Shown: positions 3,582-33,184 of the stretch, one piece after another
How the letters are laid out: every line of letters starts with the position of its first letter
Position numbering within the stretch: position 1 is the stretch's first letter
The notes under the pieces: generated by a model
What the model was told of the DNA's origin: nothing
Seen by the model: only the letters and a program-made list of their open reading frames with translations
Databases searched by the model: none
IMG/VR virus record: IMGVR_UViG_3300022745_000032
Span: 3,788-67,787 of that record
Source: a virus
Length of the DNA: 64,000 nt
Direction: 5' to 3' (one strand)
Position numbers and translations under genes: made by a program

Positions 3582-6536
3582 CTACTGGCCAACGCCGATC
3601 CATGCATACATCGTGGTTCCGCTCGCCAAAGTGGCTCCGGAAACATTACGGATGTCGATCTTGATCTCGTTGGCGTTGACGAAGGCATTGGAGTTAATGC
3701 CGTCAATGATGCATCCCTGCAGCGATGCCGGAAAGATCCTGAACGACGTCAGATTGTCTCCTCCGAAATTAGCACCATCAACGTATGGGTGATAGGCGTA
3801 GAATGACGTCGATGACCCATTGGCCAGATTAGCACCAAGGGTCATTTTGGCATAAAAGCCATTGGAGGTTACAGGTATTCCGGAGTTAAAGGATGAGCGA
3901 TTATTGGGGGTCGTAAAGCACGCAAGTCCAGTGGCCGTACGGTACAGCGAAGATGCAGATTCGTACCTATTCCCAGCCGCCCCATCGCCAATTTGAGGAG
4001 TTGGAACGAAAGACGCATAGCTGATGGTGTCATTCCAGGCCAAGAAGAAGTTGCAACCATCAAAATTACCGGCCACGTATCGTGGGTGGGTTAGCGCTAG
4101 ATAACCATTGGCGATGTCCGTGGCCATTGAACCACTTGAGGTGTAGCTGCTTGTAACGCGATAGGAATCGTACCCGGTTCCCGGGTTGCCCCAAATGACG
4201 TTATTAGTTGAGTACGATGTAGATGCGGCCCAGTTGTTTGGCCCAGCCAGCGGATCGCTTAGGGCACCACCAAACCAAGTATCAACCCTAAAAATGGACC
4301 TCGCAACCCACACAGAGTCAACAATCCCGTTCTGGAAGCCGATGGGGGACGTGACGCCCTGCATTTCAATTCCCTGGAACACCACCTTGATTGCATCGGC
4401 ATAGTAATGCCCGGTGAGTGTTCCGGAACCAGATCCGCTGAAGTAAACGGCTCTCTTGCATCCATTAACGAAATTTGCAGCAACATCTATTCCCTGGTAC
4501 TCCATGTTGGTTGAGCCATTGCCAACGGAATAGAAATTGATGGCAGATGTGACTGCCAAGCTCAGGTACTGGGCCCTGAAGTTATAGTTCTGCAGTACAC
4601 GCCTGACTGGGCTTGTCGTTGCATCAACGTAGAACTGGACGAGGTGGTTGCAGTAGTTTACGCTTGGGCATGAAACATCGCAGGTGTCTCCGCCAAAAAT
4701 CCTGATTCCGACGCCCGCAGTAAAATTGGAAATGGACGGAAGTACCATTCCTGAGAACTTGATCCCAAGCAGGGTAAACCCATTGGTCTCGCCATATGAT
4801 TCAAGCGAAGCCGATGAGGATGAATCGATTGATGCCTTTGGATTATCTCCAAGACCATCGGATCCAACTACAATGTCACCACCTCGGTAGGTGGCGGAAA
4901 AGTAGACGGTTGGCCAGTACGGGCTCGATGAATCAAAATTATCGCAGGCATCTAGGCAGGACTGGATCGCATTGCTTGAGTTTACTCCAGACCCCCTACC
5001 CTGAACTGCACCAAACCATTCTGGATAAACGAGGTATGAATTTTTACCGATCCTAACCCTTCCGGCTCCTGTATTTGGTGATGTAGCCCAAGACGCACGA
5101 TAGGGTGCATTGAAGATCTGGTAAAGTCCGGCCTCAATCCCGCCCGTAAACGTAACCGTGACAGCATTTGAAACCACCAGCTTCCCGCCCTCAAACTTGA
5201 TTGGGGATGTAATGTTTAGGTTGCTATCGATCAGATAGCTTCCGTATGGAACCAAGATCACACCATTGACAGCGGCGGCTGCCGTTTGGGTAGTCGAAAA
5301 TGCAGCCGTATCGGAGGTTACGCCATCTCCAACGGCCCCATAGTCTTTAACGCTAAAAGTCTGCTGTTCGGACCATTTCGTGTCGTAGTTGGCAGTCGAT
5401 GCCTTGACCAGCCTCGCGTTTTTTCCGCCTCCTGTTCCCAGAAGGCCCGGGATGGTCGCTTCTGAGGCCGCTGTGGCCCTTCCCTTGGCGTCGAGGGTGA
5501 TGATGGCCGATTTGGTGGCGGAGCCGTAGGTTGCAGCAGAAACGCCCGTATTTGCCAAAGTGGTGGTGGAGCTGCCAGAAGAGGCCGTAACGTCACCCGT
5601 GAGGGCTCCCCGGCTAAGCACCCCTCCTGAATAGCTCAAGGTTGAGCCGACTGAGATGGCAGCAACGGTGCCTGCGCCATTTGCAGCAAGGATGCCGTTG
5701 GCACTACCCGCACCGCCATTATTTGAGCTAAGGACGCCCGTGGTGATGTCGGAGGCAGAAACCGTCACATTGGACGAGAGGGGATGACCATTAACAGTAA
5801 CGGACGTCGAGACCTTGGCGTCAAGGGCCGTCTGTAGGTCAGTTTGGCTTGAGAGAGTGCCCGTAATGGCACCCCAGCTTACACCTCCAACGGAAGGAGC
5901 CGCCCACGTACCATCACCCCTAAGGAACAGCAGATTGCTACCCGGAAGCTTGGGGGCCAAGCCGTGGTAGAGGGTTGAGACGTTAAGGTTGGTGTTATCC
6001 GATGGGGTGCTAAGAGCATCAAGCGCAATCGGATCACTTCCACCGGCCTGGTGGGTTGAGGCGTGAAGGTTAGGATTGCGGCTATTGGTCATCCGGGGAT
6101 CATTACCCCTCGGAACCTCCGTGGCGGTGGCGGCAACGCCAGATGCGGCGATAGTCAGACCTGCATTCTTGATCAGCTTCCCAGTAGCCCCATTGAATAG
6201 GACAAGGCCGTTATCAGTAGAACTAGCAGGACCAGATACGTCACCAGAACCCGATCCCCCTCCGCCAATGGTTGATACGAGGGTCCACGTGGTGGAGTTG
6301 GTCTTTTGGTAGACCTTGGTGGTGGCGGAGGCGTCATCCATCCACTCGTACCAGTCTCCGGCGACACCAATGGTCTCGGTGGGGGCGACTGATGCAACGA
6401 AAAGGTTGTAGGTTGCGGGTACAGCCTGCTGGTCAGGGGTTGTTCCGGTTGGGGTTTGGAAGATGGCATAGTTGACCTGGGAGACCGCCTGCGGAAGCGG
6501 AGAAACGGCTGCAACGGAGGAGCTGACGTCGGGCAT
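3582..6536 (-). CDS. Tailspike / receptor-binding protein with pectate-lyase-like beta-helix
   Basis: SVKDYGAVGDGVTSDTAAF and YPEWFGAV beta-helix entry motifs; Ser/Thr/Gly-rich N-terminal fibre; CBM5/12-like WAASTSY segment. Confidence 0.8.
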   Translation of the reverse strand: MPDVSSSVAAVSPLPQAVSQVNYAIFQTPTGTTPDQQAVPATYNLFVASVAPTETIGVAGDWYEWMDDASATTKVYQKTNSTTWTLVSTIGGGGSGSGDVSGPASSTDNGLVLFNGATGKLIKNAGLTIAASGVAATATEVPRGNDPRMTNSRNPNLHASTHQAGGSDPIALDALSTPSDNTNLNVSTLYHGLAPKLPGSNLLFLRGDGTWAAPSVGGVSWGAITGTLSSQTDLQTALDAKVSTSVTVNGHPLSSNVTVSASDITTGVLSSNNGGAGSANGILAANGAGTVAAISVGSTLSYSGGVLSRGALTGDVTASSGSSTTTLANTGVSAATYGSATKSAIITLDAKGRATAASEATIPGLLGTGGGKNARLVKASTANYDTKWSEQQTFSVKDYGAVGDGVTSDTAAFSTTQTAAAAVNGVILVPYGSYLIDSNLNITSPIKFEGGKLVVSNAVTVTFTGGIEAGLYQIFNAPYRASWATSPNTGAGRVRIGKNSYLVYPEWFGAVQGRGSGVNSSNAIQSCLDACDNFDSSSPYWPTVYFSATYRGGDIVVGSDGLGDNPKASIDSSSSASLESYGETNGFTLLGIKFSGMVLPSISNFTAGVGIRIFGGDTCDVSCPSVNYCNHLVQFYVDATTSPVRRVLQNYNFRAQYLSLAVTSAINFYSVGNGSTNMEYQGIDVAANFVNGCKRAVYFSGSGSGTLTGHYYADAIKVVFQGIEMQGVTSPIGFQNGIVDSVWVARSIFRVDTWFGGALSDPLAGPNNWAASTSYSTNNVIWGNPGTGYDSYRVTSSYTSSGSMATDIANGYLALTHPRYVAGNFDGCNFFLAWNDTISYASFVPTPQIGDGAAGNRYESASSLYRTATGLACFTTPNNRSSFNSGIPVTSNGFYAKMTLGANLANGSSTSFYAYHPYVDGANFGGDNLTSFRIFPASLQGCIIDGINSNAFVNANEIKIDIRNVSGATLASGTTMYAWIGVGQ

Positions 6537-27250: not shown

Positions 27251-29098
27251 CTACTTAGCTGGTTCCGACTGGAAGTAGGGGATTGGGGCCCGCTTTGTCG
27301 TGTGGAATTGGCAGGCGTCCGGATCGAAGAAGGTTACGATTTCGCTTTCCTGACCATCCCCAAAGCGCTGCTTGTCGATGATGATCTTGCCATCTGGCTG
27401 GTCTAGCCATTGAGAGAGGGTCTCGATGTCGTTGGCTTGGCGGGCCTCGTCAATCTTGCGCTTCTTTATCTTGTTGCGCCAGAACACAATGACATTGAAT
27501 GCGGCGTTGGTAATGTCGCTTGAGCCGGCAACATCCGACTTGGATGGAGGGGTTAGCTCGTTGCCATTCTGCGTCTTACGGGAGTGGGCAACCAAGATGA
27601 CGTGTGCACCGGTATTATTGGCAAAGGATGTCAGCCTATCGGAGAAGGCCCTTGCTGCACCATAGTCCTCACCAGACATCCCGCACTTAAAGAGGGAGTC
27701 GATGACAAAGACGTCAACTCCGTGGCGCTTGCGGGCGTATTCCATGGCGTGCATGAGGCGGTCTACGTTGACGGTGCCAATGCAGTCCAAGAAGAACATC
27801 CGGTCATTAAGCCAAGATACGCAGGCCTCCGCTTCCTCCTTCGAGGCGTGCTTCTTGGCCATGGCGCACCGGGTCATGTAGTAGAGCGTTAATCCGGGGC
27901 GGATCTCAAGGGATGCGTCGAAGATGGAGCACCCCTGCTGGGCGAGGTGAAGCATGAGCTGGTTAAGCCCGAGAGTTTTACCGTGCCCGCTAAAACCCGA
28001 CCACACCGTCAGCTCACCCGGACGGACCCTCCATGGTAGGCTATGACTCCACGGCGTCTCAAAGCCTTCAGTAGCGGGATCTCGGTTGTAGTGGGAGACG
28101 ACGTCAGCGCGGAAATCATCGGGGCGCTTGATCTCGTCGAGTTCGATGGCCTTGGCGGATTCAAGGCACTTTAGCATGGTCTCGCGGGTGACTCCATCCA
28201 CCAAGCAGTCGTTTGCGTCCTTTTTGGGGAGGGAGACGATCCAGCTGCGATGAAGGCCTAGGCGCTTGGCTACCTCGGTGGAGGCTGCCTGACCTGGCTC
28301 GTCCATATCCATCGAAACGTAGATCTTCTCAAAGCGGGCCAGCCAGTCCCAGTCGATGTCCACCCACTCAAAGTCAGAGACTCCGTTTGGTACGGAGATG
28401 GCGGGAATGCCCCAAGAATGCCACGACAGGGCATCAATCTCACCCTCGCAGATCACAAGCTCGCTGACATTGGCGTCGATGAGGTTCTTGCCATAGAGAC
28501 AGCGCTTGGTGCCCTTGGTTGACCAAGAGTCCTTCTTTCCGTCCGGACGCTCCAGCTTGAGGTATTTCTTGTGGGCACAGACCCAAGCCTGCTTCTCTTG
28601 GCTGAAGTCGGCGAATGGGAAGATGATGGCTTTGCCGTCGTCAGTCTCCCCGATCTTGGCGGAAGCGACCACGATTGGGTTTAGCCTACGCTCCAGCGTC
28701 AAGTAGTCCATGACGGGAGTATTTGGCTCGGCTGGCTTGACGGGGGCTCCATCCGGCTTGGCATAGGTCTTCTGCTTGTGGCGCTTTACCCCATAATCGT
28801 CTGCCTTGACCCCAAGCCAGTCAGCGGCCTGCTTCATGGCTTCCGTAAACGGAATGCCCTTAACCTTCGCCCACAGCCAAAGGGGGGTTGCACCCTTTGT
28901 CTCCTTGTCAGCAAAATCGATGAACCTGCCGGTGGCAGATCCAGACATGGTAACCTGAAGCGACTCTCCGGCCTCACCAGAGATGCTTCCGACTAGCCAG
29001 TGGTTACCCTTGCGCTTTCCGTTGGGGAGCAGGAAGAGGCATAGCTCCTCCATGCGTTCTGAAAGGAGACGATTGATTCCATGGGCGTCATGACTCAT
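27251..29098 (-). CDS. Primase-helicase (TOPRIM + SF4; T7 gp4/Twinkle-like)
   Basis: ICEGEIDALS, DMDEPG, KDAND; Walker A GFSGHGKT; FVIDSL; LVAHSRK; GSSDI; KQRFG. Confidence 0.92.
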   Translation of the reverse strand: MSHDAHGINRLLSERMEELCLFLLPNGKRKGNHWLVGSISGEAGESLQVTMSGSATGRFIDFADKETKGATPLWLWAKVKGIPFTEAMKQAADWLGVKADDYGVKRHKQKTYAKPDGAPVKPAEPNTPVMDYLTLERRLNPIVVASAKIGETDDGKAIIFPFADFSQEKQAWVCAHKKYLKLERPDGKKDSWSTKGTKRCLYGKNLIDANVSELVICEGEIDALSWHSWGIPAISVPNGVSDFEWVDIDWDWLARFEKIYVSMDMDEPGQAASTEVAKRLGLHRSWIVSLPKKDANDCLVDGVTRETMLKCLESAKAIELDEIKRPDDFRADVVSHYNRDPATEGFETPWSHSLPWRVRPGELTVWSGFSGHGKTLGLNQLMLHLAQQGCSIFDASLEIRPGLTLYYMTRCAMAKKHASKEEAEACVSWLNDRMFFLDCIGTVNVDRLMHAMEYARKRHGVDVFVIDSLFKCGMSGEDYGAARAFSDRLTSFANNTGAHVILVAHSRKTQNGNELTPPSKSDVAGSSDITNAAFNVIVFWRNKIKKRKIDEARQANDIETLSQWLDQPDGKIIIDKQRFGDGQESEIVTFFDPDACQFHTTKRAPIPYFQSEPAK

Positions 29099-29206: not shown

Positions 29207-29797
29207 CTAGGATTTAACGTCACCGGCATTCAGCCCTCCAAGGACGAAGCAGTCCTTAGGTGGGACTGCAGGATCTTTTCTGGCTGAAACCTTGTCTGGT
29301 GCATCTAGGAAAGCAAGTAGCCCCAGGTCAGCGCCATGACAAGTGCAAAATCCAACATCGTCCGGAACATCCTTTCCCTGACGGAGAAGGAATAGTCGCC
29401 GGTCGAACTCTTCAGCCTCTGGACTGGTGGCCCAATCCATGGCGGAATTGAAGGGACAGTCCCGGCACTTCTCCCATCGTAGCTCAGCCTCTTTCACGGT
29501 AAGGAGTTTCTTGGGAGGGGCGAACCACATGTAGCGTACCCAATCCCTCCACCTGCGGTACTTCTCATTGAGGGCGGGCTTCTCACGCTCCCCGTTCTGC
29601 ACCATGGCGGGATAGTGCTCGGCGTAGTACTTGATGATGTCGCCCTCCGGATCTCCCACCGGCTGGCCGTTGGCAATGCGCAGCTCGGTGATCTTCTTCT
29701 TCAGCTCGTCAATGGTATCAGCACGCAGCACCAGCCCCATGATGGGGAAGTGGTGGCCTCCTGGCGGCAGGGTCTGCTGCTTGTGATTGATGACCAT
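29207..29797 (-). CDS. Hypothetical Cys-rich protein
   Basis: PPGGHHF...RWEKCRDCPFN...CTCHG; coupled to terL. Confidence 0.55.
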   Translation of the reverse strand: MVINHKQQTLPPGGHHFPIMGLVLRADTIDELKKKITELRIANGQPVGDPEGDIIKYYAEHYPAMVQNGEREKPALNEKYRRWRDWVRYMWFAPPKKLLTVKEAELRWEKCRDCPFNSAMDWATSPEAEEFDRRLFLLRQGKDVPDDVGFCTCHGADLGLLAFLDAPDKVSARKDPAVPPKDCFVLGGLNAGDVKS

Positions 29798-32700
29798 TAT
29801 TCCAAGTCTCCTGTTTCGGCGTCGCCTGAGATGGAATCGTCCACCTCTACCGTGGCGTAGCGGGAAATGGGGTGGAGTTGGACGCCTTGCGTCCTTTCCT
29901 CGATTACAGGATCAGGTGTCCTTTCCTCAACAAGTCCGGGCAGTACGCCGCCCTTCATCCTGACTAGGTGGGGGAGCATGACAAAGGCGTCGGCCTCGTC
30001 GGGTGAGGCATTGGCGTTGCGGGCCTTGTACTCGTCCTTCGGCTCAACCTTGATGCCCCTCTTGCCGGTGCGGTAGCGGCGGCTGGTGAGCTGATGGTTG
30101 ATTGGGGAGGTCGGAATGATTGGATTGATGAAGATGGCCCCGGTATGGGGGTCCATCCAGCGCCGGAAGGTCCACCACATCTCGGACATCACTCCCTCGC
30201 ATTGGGCGTCTGCGCCTTCGGTGTCCTCGCTGAGAATCTTTCCTTCGGTTGCGCCCTCGTTCCAGCTTACTCCATTCACATCGCCCCATACCTTGCGGAG
30301 GTGGGAATAGACGCCAAGGCCAATTCCGGTCTTGTCGATCACCACCCACTCGGGCTTGATCTTCATCATCTTGCAGCGACCGATGATTTCCTCGCTCATC
30401 TTGACGGTGTCGTCGTGCTTGGCTAGGGGGAGGAGCTGGTCGATCTGGAGAACGTGGCGGGGCTTTGATTTGGACACGTTGAGGCGGTCGGCAAACGTCG
30501 TATGCTGGCCCTTGAAATCCCTCCAGCCTGAGGCCCTTCCCCACCTGGCCACCACCATCTGGGCGGTGTCGTTGCCCATGAAGGCCAAGTCGATGGAGGC
30601 GAGAACGGACGGGTTCTCGATGAAGGTAACCTCTCCCCGCACCTGATTTGGCCAAGACGGAGGGATGATCGTGTTGACGCTGCCCGAAACCGGAGGAAAC
30701 CCTCGACCGAAGCATAAATACGCCGGGGAGTTGTCGCCACCACCCTTAAGGTACTTAAGAAATCCATCATAAGTCTGGAGGCCGTCATAGACCACCTTCC
30801 TAGCCATGACGTTTTCGCTCTTAGCTGCGTCAAGACGGCAAACCCTCCATCCGGCCTTGCTCTCATAGTCGTAAAGACTATCCAGGTCCTCAATGATCCA
30901 TCCATGATCCGGTTCAGCCAACTGGACAGCCTTGCAGGTGGTGTTCTCGGGATTGAAGGCGCATACGATCTTGACCTTCTCGGTTGAGGACAGGGAAGCG
31001 GTTAGAGAGTTAAAGTCCTGGAATGGGCCTCCGGGGATATTTTGGCAGTTATGGACACACACGCCTTCGACAAAGAAGTTGTGCGTTCCATCGACGTCTA
31101 TGCAGAAAACGACGTCTTCCTCCTCATGGTCCATTCCAACCTCAGTTGCCTTGCTAGGGCCATTCTGCATTTTGGTGAGCAGGTGAGTGCCCTCCTTAGC
31201 TTGCGAAATGGGGACCCGCATATCCTGCATGGAATTATCATCGGGCCATTTAGCATTGGCATCTCTGCTGGCTTTGGGGGTGGCGAGTCGCCCGAAATCT
31301 TGTAACTCAGGCAGGGGTGGATAAATGGACTGACTGAGGCCACAAAGCGACGCGATGCATCCGCACTCATTGCTATGATCAGCCTTCCCTTGCTCTTGCT
31401 TGGCTTCGACTGGAATCCAAGTCCCGTAAGAAACGCCGCAGCCGCATGAACATCCTCCGCTGGCCATGCGTATGTCGATAGTTTCACGTGTGGTCCCTTC
31501 AGGAACTGGCCGTGCGATGAACTGCCGTCGTCCATGAACCAAACAGCAAGCGCCATCATGTCTATCATCTTGACCATTTCTGGGTGAAAGCGCCTCACTC
31601 CGTTGATGCAGGTCTTGTGGTAGATTTCCGTGAAAATTGGATGGCTGATTGTTGTGAAGCTGTAAATCATCCCCCCGAACTCCGTCGATTGAGGACCCTT
31701 GATTTGGGAAGTTGTGAAGTTTGCCATCAGATCCCTCTTCCATCTCAAGTAATCCAGCTGGGCCACACCATGCATGAATTTGATTCTGGAGTTTGCCTTT
31801 GAGACTGGCGGCATAATTGACGCATCGCCCATTAGGCCCCCGATCACCAGTGAAAGCTGCTCCCTGCTTAACTTGTCCGAAGGTGAATAGGTTTTCATGG
31901 TCGATTTTGAGACACGTCATCCTAGACAGGATGGCCTCATCTGCAATCACAAAACCTCGCTCTTTGGTCAAAATCCTATGGTCGTAGGTAACGACCGCCC
32001 CATTTACAGAAACAAAGCGTCGGCCACGGCGCGGTACTTCTCTCCATCCGGTAATTTCCCTTGGCTCAATTATGCCAGTGGCTGGGTTGAGAGATAGGAC
32101 ATGCCCTTTAACCCTGTTCCTTACCAGTTCGCATATCGTGATAAGCGATCCGTCTGCCATCGAAACTCGCTGATCTCCGCGTACGCATTCGTCAGCGAGC
32201 ACCCTTAGACGGGAGTGGGGAGGGAGCTTTGATCCTATTGGACGCTTAACGGGAAGGGACTTGTACCCTTTGAATTGGCCGGATGTCTCTTGGGATTGCT
32301 TGAAGGCAATACCAGATATGCCGAACTCCATGCCTGCATCCTTGATCCCGATCCACATGTCGGCCTCCTTGAAGTCGAACTTGGTGGCGGGGGGAATGGC
32401 AAGGCCCCGGATGAGCTTGGCGACGTGAGGGAAGAGATTCTCCCTTAGATGCTTTTCGGAGACGGCTGCCAGCTTGATGGAGGTGTAGCGCGGGTCCTTG
32501 AGGTAATCTAAGGCCATCCATGCACCCACGGAGTACGATTTGCCCATCGAGCTTGCTCCGGGAATTAGGAGGAGGGCGGATGTCGCAACGGCGTTGAATA
32601 CGCGCTGAACGCATTCCGGCTCAGCGTTGAAGAGGACGGGTCCCCATTGGAGGGTTGCGGCCTCAAGGTACAGGCCTTCGCTTAGGAGGTGCTGGAAGAG

Positions 32701-32841
32701 ACCCCTGCAGATCGCCAGAGCCTGGGCCTTGGTTGTGACGGTGGGCTTGTTGCCCATCAGGTCCATCACATTATTCCCGGCCTCAATCCAGTTATCCGCC
32801 GAGATCAGGTCATTCAGCTCCCTTGCTTCCTTGATTGTCAT
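29797..32841 (-). CDS. terL: Terminase large subunit containing an intein
   Basis: Walker A GASSMGKS; Walker B LRVLADE interrupted by the intein; nuclease motifs IDLAFMGND, IDKTGIG, SPDEADA. Confidence 0.9.
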   Translation of the reverse strand: MTIKEARELNDLISADNWIEAGNNVMDLMGNKPTVTTKAQALAICRGLFQHLLSEGLYLEAATLQWGPVLFNAEPECVQRVFNAVATSALLLIPGASSMGKSYSVGAWMALDYLKDPRYTSIKLAAVSEKHLRENLFPHVAKLIRGLAIPPATKFDFKEADMWIGIKDAGMEFGISGIAFKQSQETSGQFKGYKSLPVKRPIGSKLPPHSRLRVLADECVRGDQRVSMADGSLITICELVRNRVKGHVLSLNPATGIIEPREITGWREVPRRGRRFVSVNGAVVTYDHRILTKERGFVIADEAILSRMTCLKIDHENLFTFGQVKQGAAFTGDRGPNGRCVNYAASLKGKLQNQIHAWCGPAGLLEMEEGSDGKLHNFPNQGSSIDGVRGDDLQLHNNQPSNFHGNLPQDLHQRSEALSPRNGQDDRHDGACCLVHGRRQFIARPVPEGTTRETIDIRMASGGCSCGCGVSYGTWIPVEAKQEQGKADHSNECGCIASLCGLSQSIYPPLPELQDFGRLATPKASRDANAKWPDDNSMQDMRVPISQAKEGTHLLTKMQNGPSKATEVGMDHEEEDVVFCIDVDGTHNFFVEGVCVHNCQNIPGGPFQDFNSLTASLSSTEKVKIVCAFNPENTTCKAVQLAEPDHGWIIEDLDSLYDYESKAGWRVCRLDAAKSENVMARKVVYDGLQTYDGFLKYLKGGGDNSPAYLCFGRGFPPVSGSVNTIIPPSWPNQVRGEVTFIENPSVLASIDLAFMGNDTAQMVVARWGRASGWRDFKGQHTTFADRLNVSKSKPRHVLQIDQLLPLAKHDDTVKMSEEIIGRCKMMKIKPEWVVIDKTGIGLGVYSHLRKVWGDVNGVSWNEGATEGKILSEDTEGADAQCEGVMSEMWWTFRRWMDPHTGAIFINPIIPTSPINHQLTSRRYRTGKRGIKVEPKDEYKARNANASPDEADAFVMLPHLVRMKGGVLPGLVEERTPDPVIEERTQGVQLHPISRYATVEVDDSISGDAETGDLE
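31048..32187 (-). mobile_element. Intein (380 aa) inserted just after TerL Walker B
   Basis: C1 CVRGDQRVSMADGS; block B VTYDHRIL; blocks F/G VFCIDVDGTHNFFVEGVCVHN; +1 Cys. Confidence 0.92.
31098..31898 (-). CDS. LAGLIDADG homing endonuclease nested in the +1 frame of the intein
   Basis: VIGGLMGDASI...HGVAQLDYLRWK...HPIFT...ALAVWFMDDGS; C-terminal CxxC...CSxxC zinc finger. Confidence 0.85.
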   Translation of the reverse strand: MKTYSPSDKLSREQLSLVIGGLMGDASIMPPVSKANSRIKFMHGVAQLDYLRWKRDLMANFTTSQIKGPQSTEFGGMIYSFTTISHPIFTEIYHKTCINGVRRFHPEMVKMIDMMALAVWFMDDGSSSHGQFLKGPHVKLSTYAWPAEDVHAAAAFLTGLGFQSKPSKSKGRLIIAMSADASRRFVASVSPFIHPCLSYKISGDSPPPKPAEMPMLNGPMIIPCRICGSPFRKLRRALTCSPKCRMALARQLRLEWTMRRKTSFSA

Positions 32842-33184
32842 CTTTCTTGGTCATCTTGCTGAAGTCGATCCCGCTTTCGGCGGGCAGGGCTTCGACGGGG
32901 GTTGCTTGGGTGGGGTCGGGATCCTTGTAGACCTGCTGGGAGAACTCGGCAAGGGATTTACCGGCCTCCGCCAGATCCCTTAGCTCCTTGGGGGTCATGG
33001 GACCATCCAGGTTCTGGAGCTTCTTGATGTTCTGCTCAAGGAGGTGGCGGATGGCTGCGGCGAGCAGGTGGTTGGCGATTCGATTCTCACCTGCATCGCC
33101 GGGAACGCGCACGATTGCGCCATCCGTCTCGACCTCGTAGGCCTTCGGCATCAATCGGGCGATTTCCTTGGTTTTAGCAGCCAT
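32810..33184 (-). CDS. Probable terminase small subunit
   Basis: Helical 124-aa protein directly upstream of and overlapping terL; positional call only. Confidence 0.45.
   Translation of the reverse strand: MAAKTKEIARLMPKAYEVETDGAIVRVPGDAGENRIANHLLAAAIRHLLEQNIKKLQNLDGPMTPKELRDLAEAGKSLAEFSQQVYKDPDPTQATPVEALPAESGIDFSKMTKKDDNQGSKGAE

Follow-up and report, generated by a model that had tools for sequence, protein, structure and literature searches.

The 64,000-nt stretch analysed here (the window; positions 3,788 to 67,787 of the IMG/VR virus record IMGVR_UViG_3300022745_000032) carries, within a gene resembling that of a terminase large subunit, an insert that is free of stop codons in the frame of its host gene and contains a complete LAGLIDADG homing endonuclease gene in the +1 frame (Table 1). 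With a probability of roughly 85%, we read this insert as a mobile intein occupying the DE|C site in the Walker B motif of a phage terminase (here and below, the vertical bar marks the insertion site); its endonuclease would be encoded by a gene of its own, of the free-standing type, which is placed in the +1 frame and flanked on both sides by the lobes of the Hint splicing domain. The reading is carried directly by the anatomy of the locus, the non-random open host frame, the conservation of the layout, the selection acting on the endonuclease frame, the folds that were predicted, and the intein-less alleles; from these we infer separate initiation, splicing, cleavage, and homing. The window represents most of the 67.8-kb record, the completeness of which is rated 97%, and freshwater metagenome is the label of the sequencing runs containing the stretch. 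An earlier sequence-only reading of the window had proposed true dual coding at this locus. Its coordinates for the open reading frame (ORF), the intein, and the +1 ORF were all reproduced when re-derived from the sequence, and dual coding is supported by the open frame beyond chance, an indel-free assembly, conservation in eight further loci, and the substitution pattern in the endonuclease frame.

Over the 266 codons of the endonuclease gene, the host frame contains 0 stop codons and the third frame 24. When synonymous codons were permuted within the endonuclease gene (20000 shuffles), the host frame acquired 9.3 stops on average and remained stop-free in 1/20000 shuffles, in agreement with the earlier claim that both frames are open for about 800 nt. 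For the relatives L002 and L082-L085, which are described below, stop-free shuffles amounted to 0/20000 each, and for the short partial copy L087 to 305/20000. In the +1 register, a stop in the host frame is created only where T is the last base of an endonuclease codon and the next codon starts with AA, AG or GA. At such at-risk codon junctions T occurs in 0/62 cases in the window, compared to 40/203 elsewhere, and six relatives range from 0/35 to 0/87. Since host-frame stops arise only with T-ending codons at set junctions, synonymous choice alone avoids all of them, and because this avoidance, as a consequence of the genetic code, is purely synonymous, the overlap is affordable without amino-acid cost to the endonuclease. 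The control set comprised the 102 of the loci L002-L104 with a tblastn match, 96 of them outside the family defined below. A stop-free -1 frame was observed for two of these 96 LAGLIDADG_2 relatives (L032 and L058), the endonucleases of which share their frame with ORFs of 714-723 amino acids (aa), and a stop-free +1 frame for 0/102 loci. The 77 other metagenome relatives carry 2-32 stops, with a median of 17. The open host frame is not a product of chance, and a chance ORF was rejected as an explanation on the same shuffle test.

The same layout recurs in eight further loci, giving nine in all: L002 from a metagenome-assembled genome (MAG) of Nostoc sp. JL33, L082-L085 and the partial L087 on viral contigs, and L147 and the partial L148 on metagenome contigs. 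In 8/8 of these loci the endonuclease lies in the host+1 frame. For L002 and L082-L085, in which both ends are present, the endonuclease starts at intein residue 96-98 and its TAG is located 14-16 codons before the intein end. The endonucleases of the eight loci are about 32-42% identical to that of the window (tblastn). The host genes of the relatives encode UvrD-like helicases, with Pfam UvrD_C and/or UvrD-helicase matches on the exteins of L002, L082-L085, and L147, and the helicase insertion site is likewise DE|C, followed by QD. A scan of viral contigs with a single protein query returned no relative; the relatives in viral contigs were retrieved by an alignment-based scan. An additional GC-rich, partial endonuclease relative (L149) has two stops in the would-be host frame and lacks the Hint C-lobe downstream; it may be a free-standing or a decayed copy and was placed outside the nine-locus family. 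Directly after the endonuclease of L149 (positions 1-1659) follows an ORF of 295 aa that is transposase-like by eye. In the helicase gene of L087 (positions 2-2578, + strand, host frame), an apparent second intein of about 330 aa is found further downstream near the C-terminal helicase motifs, reading GTNH|CSPPDE...AVVHN|SVKGGEG.

Due to the origin of the record as a metagenome-assembled virus, an artefact had to be considered, in which a pair of sequencing or assembly indels, each compensating for the other, would have shifted an ordinary endonuclease domain out of frame; indels near 31898 and near 31100 would formally restore a canonical intein. Over 30700-32600, the window is matched without any difference and with 0 gaps by a Logan contig (67681 nt, depth 25.6) assembled from run X1, and 151-nt contigs from two other studies, which span the endonuclease stop and the splice junction at the C-terminal side (30758-31123), differ by one substitution. 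Moreover, a displaced frame would have to be stop-free by the luck seen in a single shuffle, and, as the stronger evidence, the offset and the start and stop positions are repeated in eight independent loci. The artefact was rejected on the identity of the X1 assembly, the shuffle test, and the eight-locus recurrence, and its remaining probability is negligible. The sequence-only reading had argued that a single sequencing frameshift cannot explain the layout, which holds in view of the second assembly and the recurrence; the pair of compensating indels it had named as a counter-case is excluded in practice.

Selection was measured on 211 aligned codons of six members (15 pairs). Nucleotide divergence at endonuclease codon positions 1, 2, and 3 is 0.45, 0.37, and 0.66, respectively; the third position of the host frame corresponds to endonuclease position 2, the least variable one. 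Amino-acid identity in the overlap is 45% in the endonuclease frame versus 22% in the host frame, with mean BLOSUM62 scores of 2.27 versus 0.47. Judged by these substitutions, the overlap evolves as a protein in the endonuclease frame, and the host frame appears to be constrained only to remain open. The case of a +1 ORF devoid of purifying selection, raised earlier as one that would speak against dual coding, does not agree with the high variability of endonuclease position 3 and the identity of 45% versus 22%.

The product of the +1 frame matches Pfam LAGLIDADG_2 (PF03161) over profile positions 2-168 of 168 (E 8.3e-26, 91.4 bits, cut-off 25) and phrog_11023, a LAGLIDADG homing endonuclease (E 8.7e-15). 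Its AlphaFold2 model, built with a 12-sequence alignment, has a mean pLDDT (predicted score in the local distance difference test) of 87.5, and the best structural matches are I-WcaI (6x1j, E 3.1e-14) and I-SceI, with template modelling (TM) scores of 0.76-0.77 normalised by target length. The acidic residues of the catalytic motifs are kept, G24-D25 and D123-D124-G125 being invariant. The gene starts with an ATG at 31898 inside the host codons GAC CAT GAA (intein residue 97) and ends with a TAG at 31100..31098 within the codons ATA GAC of block F, 16 codons short of the end of the intein; the ORF and the Pfam match agree with the earlier description of a complete, 266-aa, two-motif LAGLIDADG enzyme with its own ATG and an end in block F. 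The C-terminal zinc finger described at the same time corresponds to a zinc-ribbon-like CxxC...CxxxC module with conserved cysteines: C224, C227, and C244 are invariant in seven family members and C240 in a three-sequence alignment. This module is modelled as two short strands and a helix (pLDDT 75-91), and relatives contain one to several of them. By profile and model, the +1 product is predicted to be a monomeric two-motif LAGLIDADG_2 enzyme with an I-SceI-like fold, and it would be expected to cleave the intein-less allele.

In the host frame, the insert shows the marks of a class-1 intein, i.e., Cys1, T67xxH70 (block B), the terminal HN, and a +1 Cys, and C1, T67, H70, and N380 are invariant across six family inteins in the alignment. 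The Hint C-lobe motif EEDVVFCIDVDGTHNFFVEGVCVHN is kept in the intein family and in dnaX inteins. A profile search of both frames, as had been suggested, gave LAGLIDADG_2 strongly in the +1 frame and Intein_splicing weakly in the host frame (21.1 bits, under the cut-off of 35.8, with a match confined to the C-terminal end). In the AlphaFold2 model of the host-frame intein, built with a six-sequence alignment, the confident parts (residues 1-96 and 356-380) match mini-inteins, namely those of Ssp and Npu DnaE and of Mtu RecA, over 113-122 columns (Foldseek E 7e-6 to 1e-5). Motifs and model together identify the insert as a predicted class-1 intein with Hint fold, and the intact motifs as well as the essential role of the host gene let us expect protein splicing.

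Between the lobes, linker residues 97-103 and 105-355 have pLDDT values below 50 and almost no secondary structure, so that the 259 host-frame residues are predicted to be disordered, as the sequence-only reading had assumed in calling the middle of the intein an unstructured linker. Except for about eight codons at each end, the structured part of each frame overlies the unstructured part of the other. The description of this filler as Cys/His/Arg/Gly-rich stands for glycine, the most frequent residue (30/259, followed by L, A, Q, and S); Cys, His, and Arg are not markedly enriched. The stretches CSCGCG and ECGCIASLCG are present in the linker, which would be translated with every terminase precursor, and both might be taken to indicate a linker that is functional in itself, e.g., as a redox or metal sensor gating splicing. 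We consider this very remote, considering the host-frame identity of 22% and the mean BLOSUM62 score of 0.47 among relatives, the lack of any predicted structure, and the fact that the few conserved host-frame residues sit under conserved endonuclease motifs.

Concerning translation of the +1 product, an ATG or GTG followed by AAA-A occurs at the same position in 8/8 loci covering the start, while the host-frame residues at this position vary (DHE, NSE, TSE, DGQ, and NHE). The same Met is the first residue of P0001 and P0002, the closest proteins in the databases. The start codon kept in 8/8 loci suggests that the endonuclease is translated separately. Alternatively, the enzyme could be made by a programmed +1 ribosomal frameshift near CAT GAA AAA, giving a fusion of the N-extein, the Hint N-lobe, and the endonuclease. 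The A-rich run after the start in 8/8 loci and the absence of a Shine-Dalgarno motif would fit such an event, but the start codon is fixed despite the varying host-frame residues, +1-frame stops 6-24 nt upstream leave almost no space for a shift site, and for P0001 and P0002 the annotation or gene call gives a stand-alone protein from that Met. We therefore regard a programmed frameshift as highly improbable.

Several points weigh against a mobile intein with a separately translated endonuclease gene. The endonuclease start is preceded by a Shine-Dalgarno-like 4-mer in 0/8 loci, and a promoter-like site upstream of the start within the intein was not found. The stretch appears in no RNA run in the run search, and translation of both frames through the overlap is a prediction. 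Selection was read from codon-position divergence and from identity per frame; synonymous sites are near saturation at this divergence, so that a ratio of nonsynonymous to synonymous substitution rates (dN/dS) would be saturated. Run X1 is possibly the source of the record, so that its identity to the window is a check of the assembler rather than of the reads. Finally, a single PHROG match, that of the C-extein, carries the terminase assignment, for which Pfam is silent. Regarding the first of these points, 13/74 long ORFs of the window have a Shine-Dalgarno-like 4-mer, compared to a background of 0.23 (crude count), and due to this lack of enrichment the missing motif at the start weighs little. 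A promoter and terminator scan of 30900-32900 gave nothing above shuffled expectation, and the sole promoter-like site was located inside the endonuclease gene.

The +1 ORF might also be a relic, silent or in decay, left by the invasion of a mini-intein by an endonuclease gene, with selection acting only on the open host frame. Expression of the ORF is predicted only, Shine-Dalgarno and promoter signals were not found, and decay is predicted by the homing-cycle model, as seen for the dnaX relative L118 with its shortened endonuclease ORF. In a relic, stops would accumulate quickly because the host frame gives the +1 frame no protection; the ORF is intact in 9/9 intein-borne copies, both catalytic motifs are invariant, third codon positions are the most variable ones, and the structural model of the product is confident. 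A relic is hence improbable, and an intein with a functional +1-frame endonuclease gene is the reading followed below.

As to mobility, the intein is absent at this site in 12/12 related terminase genes (12 of 23 related loci were examined). The seven closest intein-less terminases, with 61-65% identity, read RV(L/I)GDE|GQNWPG or GNQWPS, and L124-L130 are candidate empty sites. In the endonuclease tree, which was midpoint-rooted for drawing only and from which the order of events is not derivable, the window copy is placed among the helicase-borne ones, with moderate support for the nested forks (82/87, 89/83, and 80/63). Motif II of the helicases and Walker B of the terminase have the site GAY GAR | TGY CAR RAY in common. 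Tree and common site together hint that the intein moved to the terminase Walker B from motif II of the helicases.

In the mechanism we propose, ribosomes reading the host frame would yield a precursor with 96 Hint residues on the N-terminal and about 25 on the C-terminal side of a disordered linker of 259 residues. Splicing of the terminase would be carried out by the Hint lobes, folded around this linker. The monomeric two-motif LAGLIDADG enzyme with its C-terminal zinc ribbon would come from ribosomes initiating at the internal ATG (31898). This enzyme would cut intein-less alleles at sites resembling GAY GAR | GGN CAR AAY, and cleavage would drive homing of the whole module of intein and endonuclease.

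The identity of the host gene as that of a terminase large subunit is putative. It is suggested by the match of the C-extein to phrog_2, terminase large subunit (E 4.7e-8 in the PHROG search), together with the motifs GASSMGKS and RVLADE. With the exteins searched separately, the terminase family is absent from the Pfam matches of either extein, and the N-extein alone has zero Pfam or PHROG matches. The GC content is 51.5% in the intein (31048-32187), compared to 57.1% in the exteins and 56.2% in the whole window; the lower value of the intein is consistent with a foreign origin. Directly downstream of the terminase gene, a 615-aa ORF (27251-29098, - strand) contains the P-loop GFSGHGKT and is primase-helicase-like by eye. 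A blastn comparison of the whole region with a phage collection gave zero matches.

Table 1. Features of the terminase-like gene, its intein, and the overlapping endonuclease gene (positions in the window).
Feature	Position	Strand	Basis
Host gene, terminase large subunit-like precursor	29797..32841	-	1014-aa ORF including the intein
N-extein, 218 aa, last residues Walker-B-like RVLADE	32188..32841	-	Translation
C-extein, 416 aa and stop, first residues CQNIPG	29797..31047	-	Translation
Walker A GASSMGKS in the N-extein	32559..32536	-	Motif
Intein, 380 aa, host frame	31048..32187	-	Cys1 after RVLADE; VHN end before CQNIPG
Hint N-lobe (predicted), intein residues 1-96	31900..32187	-	AlphaFold2 pLDDT 78-91 per 10-residue block, mainly beta strands
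Host-frame linker, intein residues 97-355, 259 aa	31123..31899	-	-1 reading of the endonuclease gene
Hint C-lobe (predicted), blocks F and G, residues 356-380, EEDVVFCIDVDGTHNFFVEGVCVHN	31048..31122	-	pLDDT 86-88 over 361-380
Homing endonuclease gene, 266 aa and TAG, wholly inside the intein, +1 frame	31098..31898	-	ORF and Pfam
LAGLIDADG motif 1, LVIGGLMGDASI	31815..31850	-	G24 and D25 invariant in 12- and 7-sequence alignments
LAGLIDADG motif 2, MALAVWFMDDGS	31521..31556	-	A116 and A118-G125 invariant in 12- and 7-sequence alignments
Zinc-ribbon-like CxxC...CxxxC module, endonuclease C-terminus	31167..31229	-	Conserved Cys and model

The sequence-only reading had implied that an out-of-frame intein endonuclease is novel, and it had called for a literature check. 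This check brought up reports of the design for dnaX and actinophage inteins (bioRxiv 10.64898/2026.09.14.751524; 10.1101/2025.01.02.630785), so that the implied novelty does not stand. Phillips, DeSimone, and Gogarten (bioRxiv 10.64898/2026.09.14.751524) describe a LAGLIDADG gene in the "+2ORF" of the intein of cyanobacterial dnaX (DNA polymerase III gamma/tau), report that the filler in the host frame is disordered and that selection depends on the frame, and credit Gorbalenya 1998. Within 301 sampled genomes from the phylum to which the Nostoc MAG belongs, we examined 10 dnaX loci (L106-L111, L113-L115, and L118; L111 in part), in all of which the site is VIDE|C...HN|CHML and the endonuclease is encoded on the same strand, in host+2, with an N-terminal CxC module. 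In L118 the endonuclease ORF is shortened to 169 aa and the host frame is still open.

The dnaX intein and the window element have in common a same-strand overlapping LAGLIDADG gene between the Hint lobes, a disordered host-frame filler, insertion after a Walker-B DE with a +1 Cys, and the C-lobe DNHNF(F/V)ANG..VHN; purifying selection in the endonuclease frame is a further likeness as far as the preprint describes it. In contrast, the offset is host+2 in dnaX and host+1 in the window, the zinc module is an N-terminal CxC instead of a C-terminal zinc ribbon, and the host genes differ. The dnaX endonucleases are 24-30% identical to that of the window and form a separate clade (support 100/100). 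Hint identity to the window is 25-29% for dnaX, compared to 35-43% within the family of the window, the L083 row of this comparison being N-lobe only. By these sequence comparisons, the window element appears to resemble the dnaX intein in its working and to belong to a different lineage.

Gosselin, Arsenault, and Gogarten (bioRxiv 10.1101/2025.01.02.630785) report actinophage inteins, some of them in terminase large subunits, with the endonuclease in a separate ORF inside the intein. The types given in their text are an antisense LAGLIDADG, an antisense VSR-like, and a same-strand, frame-3, endonuclease VII-like enzyme. They propose that a free-standing endonuclease gene invaded a mini-intein and that exteins were switched via common nucleotide-binding motifs. 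According to their description, these inteins resemble the window element in being phage-borne, in occurring partly in terminases, and in having the endonuclease as a separate ORF within the intein; unlike it, a same-strand +1-frame LAGLIDADG is not among the types described, supplements excepted. Likewise, no report of a +1-frame LAGLIDADG/zinc-ribbon intein family was found in Phillips et al. or Gosselin et al., again apart from the supplements. In the text of the latter the Synechocystis dnaX endonuclease is called antisense; in 10/10 dnaX loci it is located on the same strand in host+2, which agrees with the account of Phillips et al.

A comparable case outside the inteins is that of ShiLan, where an HNH insertion lies out of frame within a phage DNA methylase (Arsenault et al. 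2025, PMC11855218). As described there, an endonuclease gene is likewise hidden in another frame of an insert that is stop-free in the host frame. It differs in encoding an HNH and not a LAGLIDADG enzyme and in lacking a splicing domain, due to which the insert stays in the host protein. LAGLIDADG_2 relatives also occur in frame within canonical inteins. Canonical bifunctional inteins (PI-SceI; the RecA-type P0009 and P0015) have the Hint fold and the endonuclease insertion point between the lobes in common with the window element. There, one polypeptide has both activities, whereas the window has two frames, a predicted disordered linker, and two predicted products. In cyanobacterial genomes, L112, L116, L117, and L119-L122 are LAGLIDADG_2 relatives (214-341 aa) for which a long overlapping ORF on the same strand is absent; at L120-L122, CxxC modules are present at the N-terminus. 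These relatives have the appearance of free-standing endonuclease genes and are presumed to be the source pool.

It is tempting to speculate that the nine loci represent a second overlapping-gene intein lineage, independent of dnaX and in the +1 register, which moved from motif II of UvrD-like helicases (DE|CQD, phage and cyanobacterial) to the terminase Walker B (DE|CQN). We put forward this history tentatively, at somewhat less than even odds. If it is true, free-standing endonuclease genes colonised mini-inteins repeatedly, the register would predict which of these invasions survive, and common nucleotide-binding motifs would be stepping stones between unrelated ATPases.

With the window, an environmental, terminase-borne case and its family of nine loci join a rare design for which cyanobacterial dnaX had until recently been the main example. 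Intein and homing endonuclease would here be two overlapping genes and not one polypeptide, and an essential frame can stay open over about 800 nt through synonymous choice alone. Gene callers and intein surveys limited to the in-frame reading would call such cases mini-inteins or inteins with a degenerate endonuclease. Furthermore, the arrangement bears on the view of inteins as splicing domains that were later invaded by free-standing endonuclease genes.

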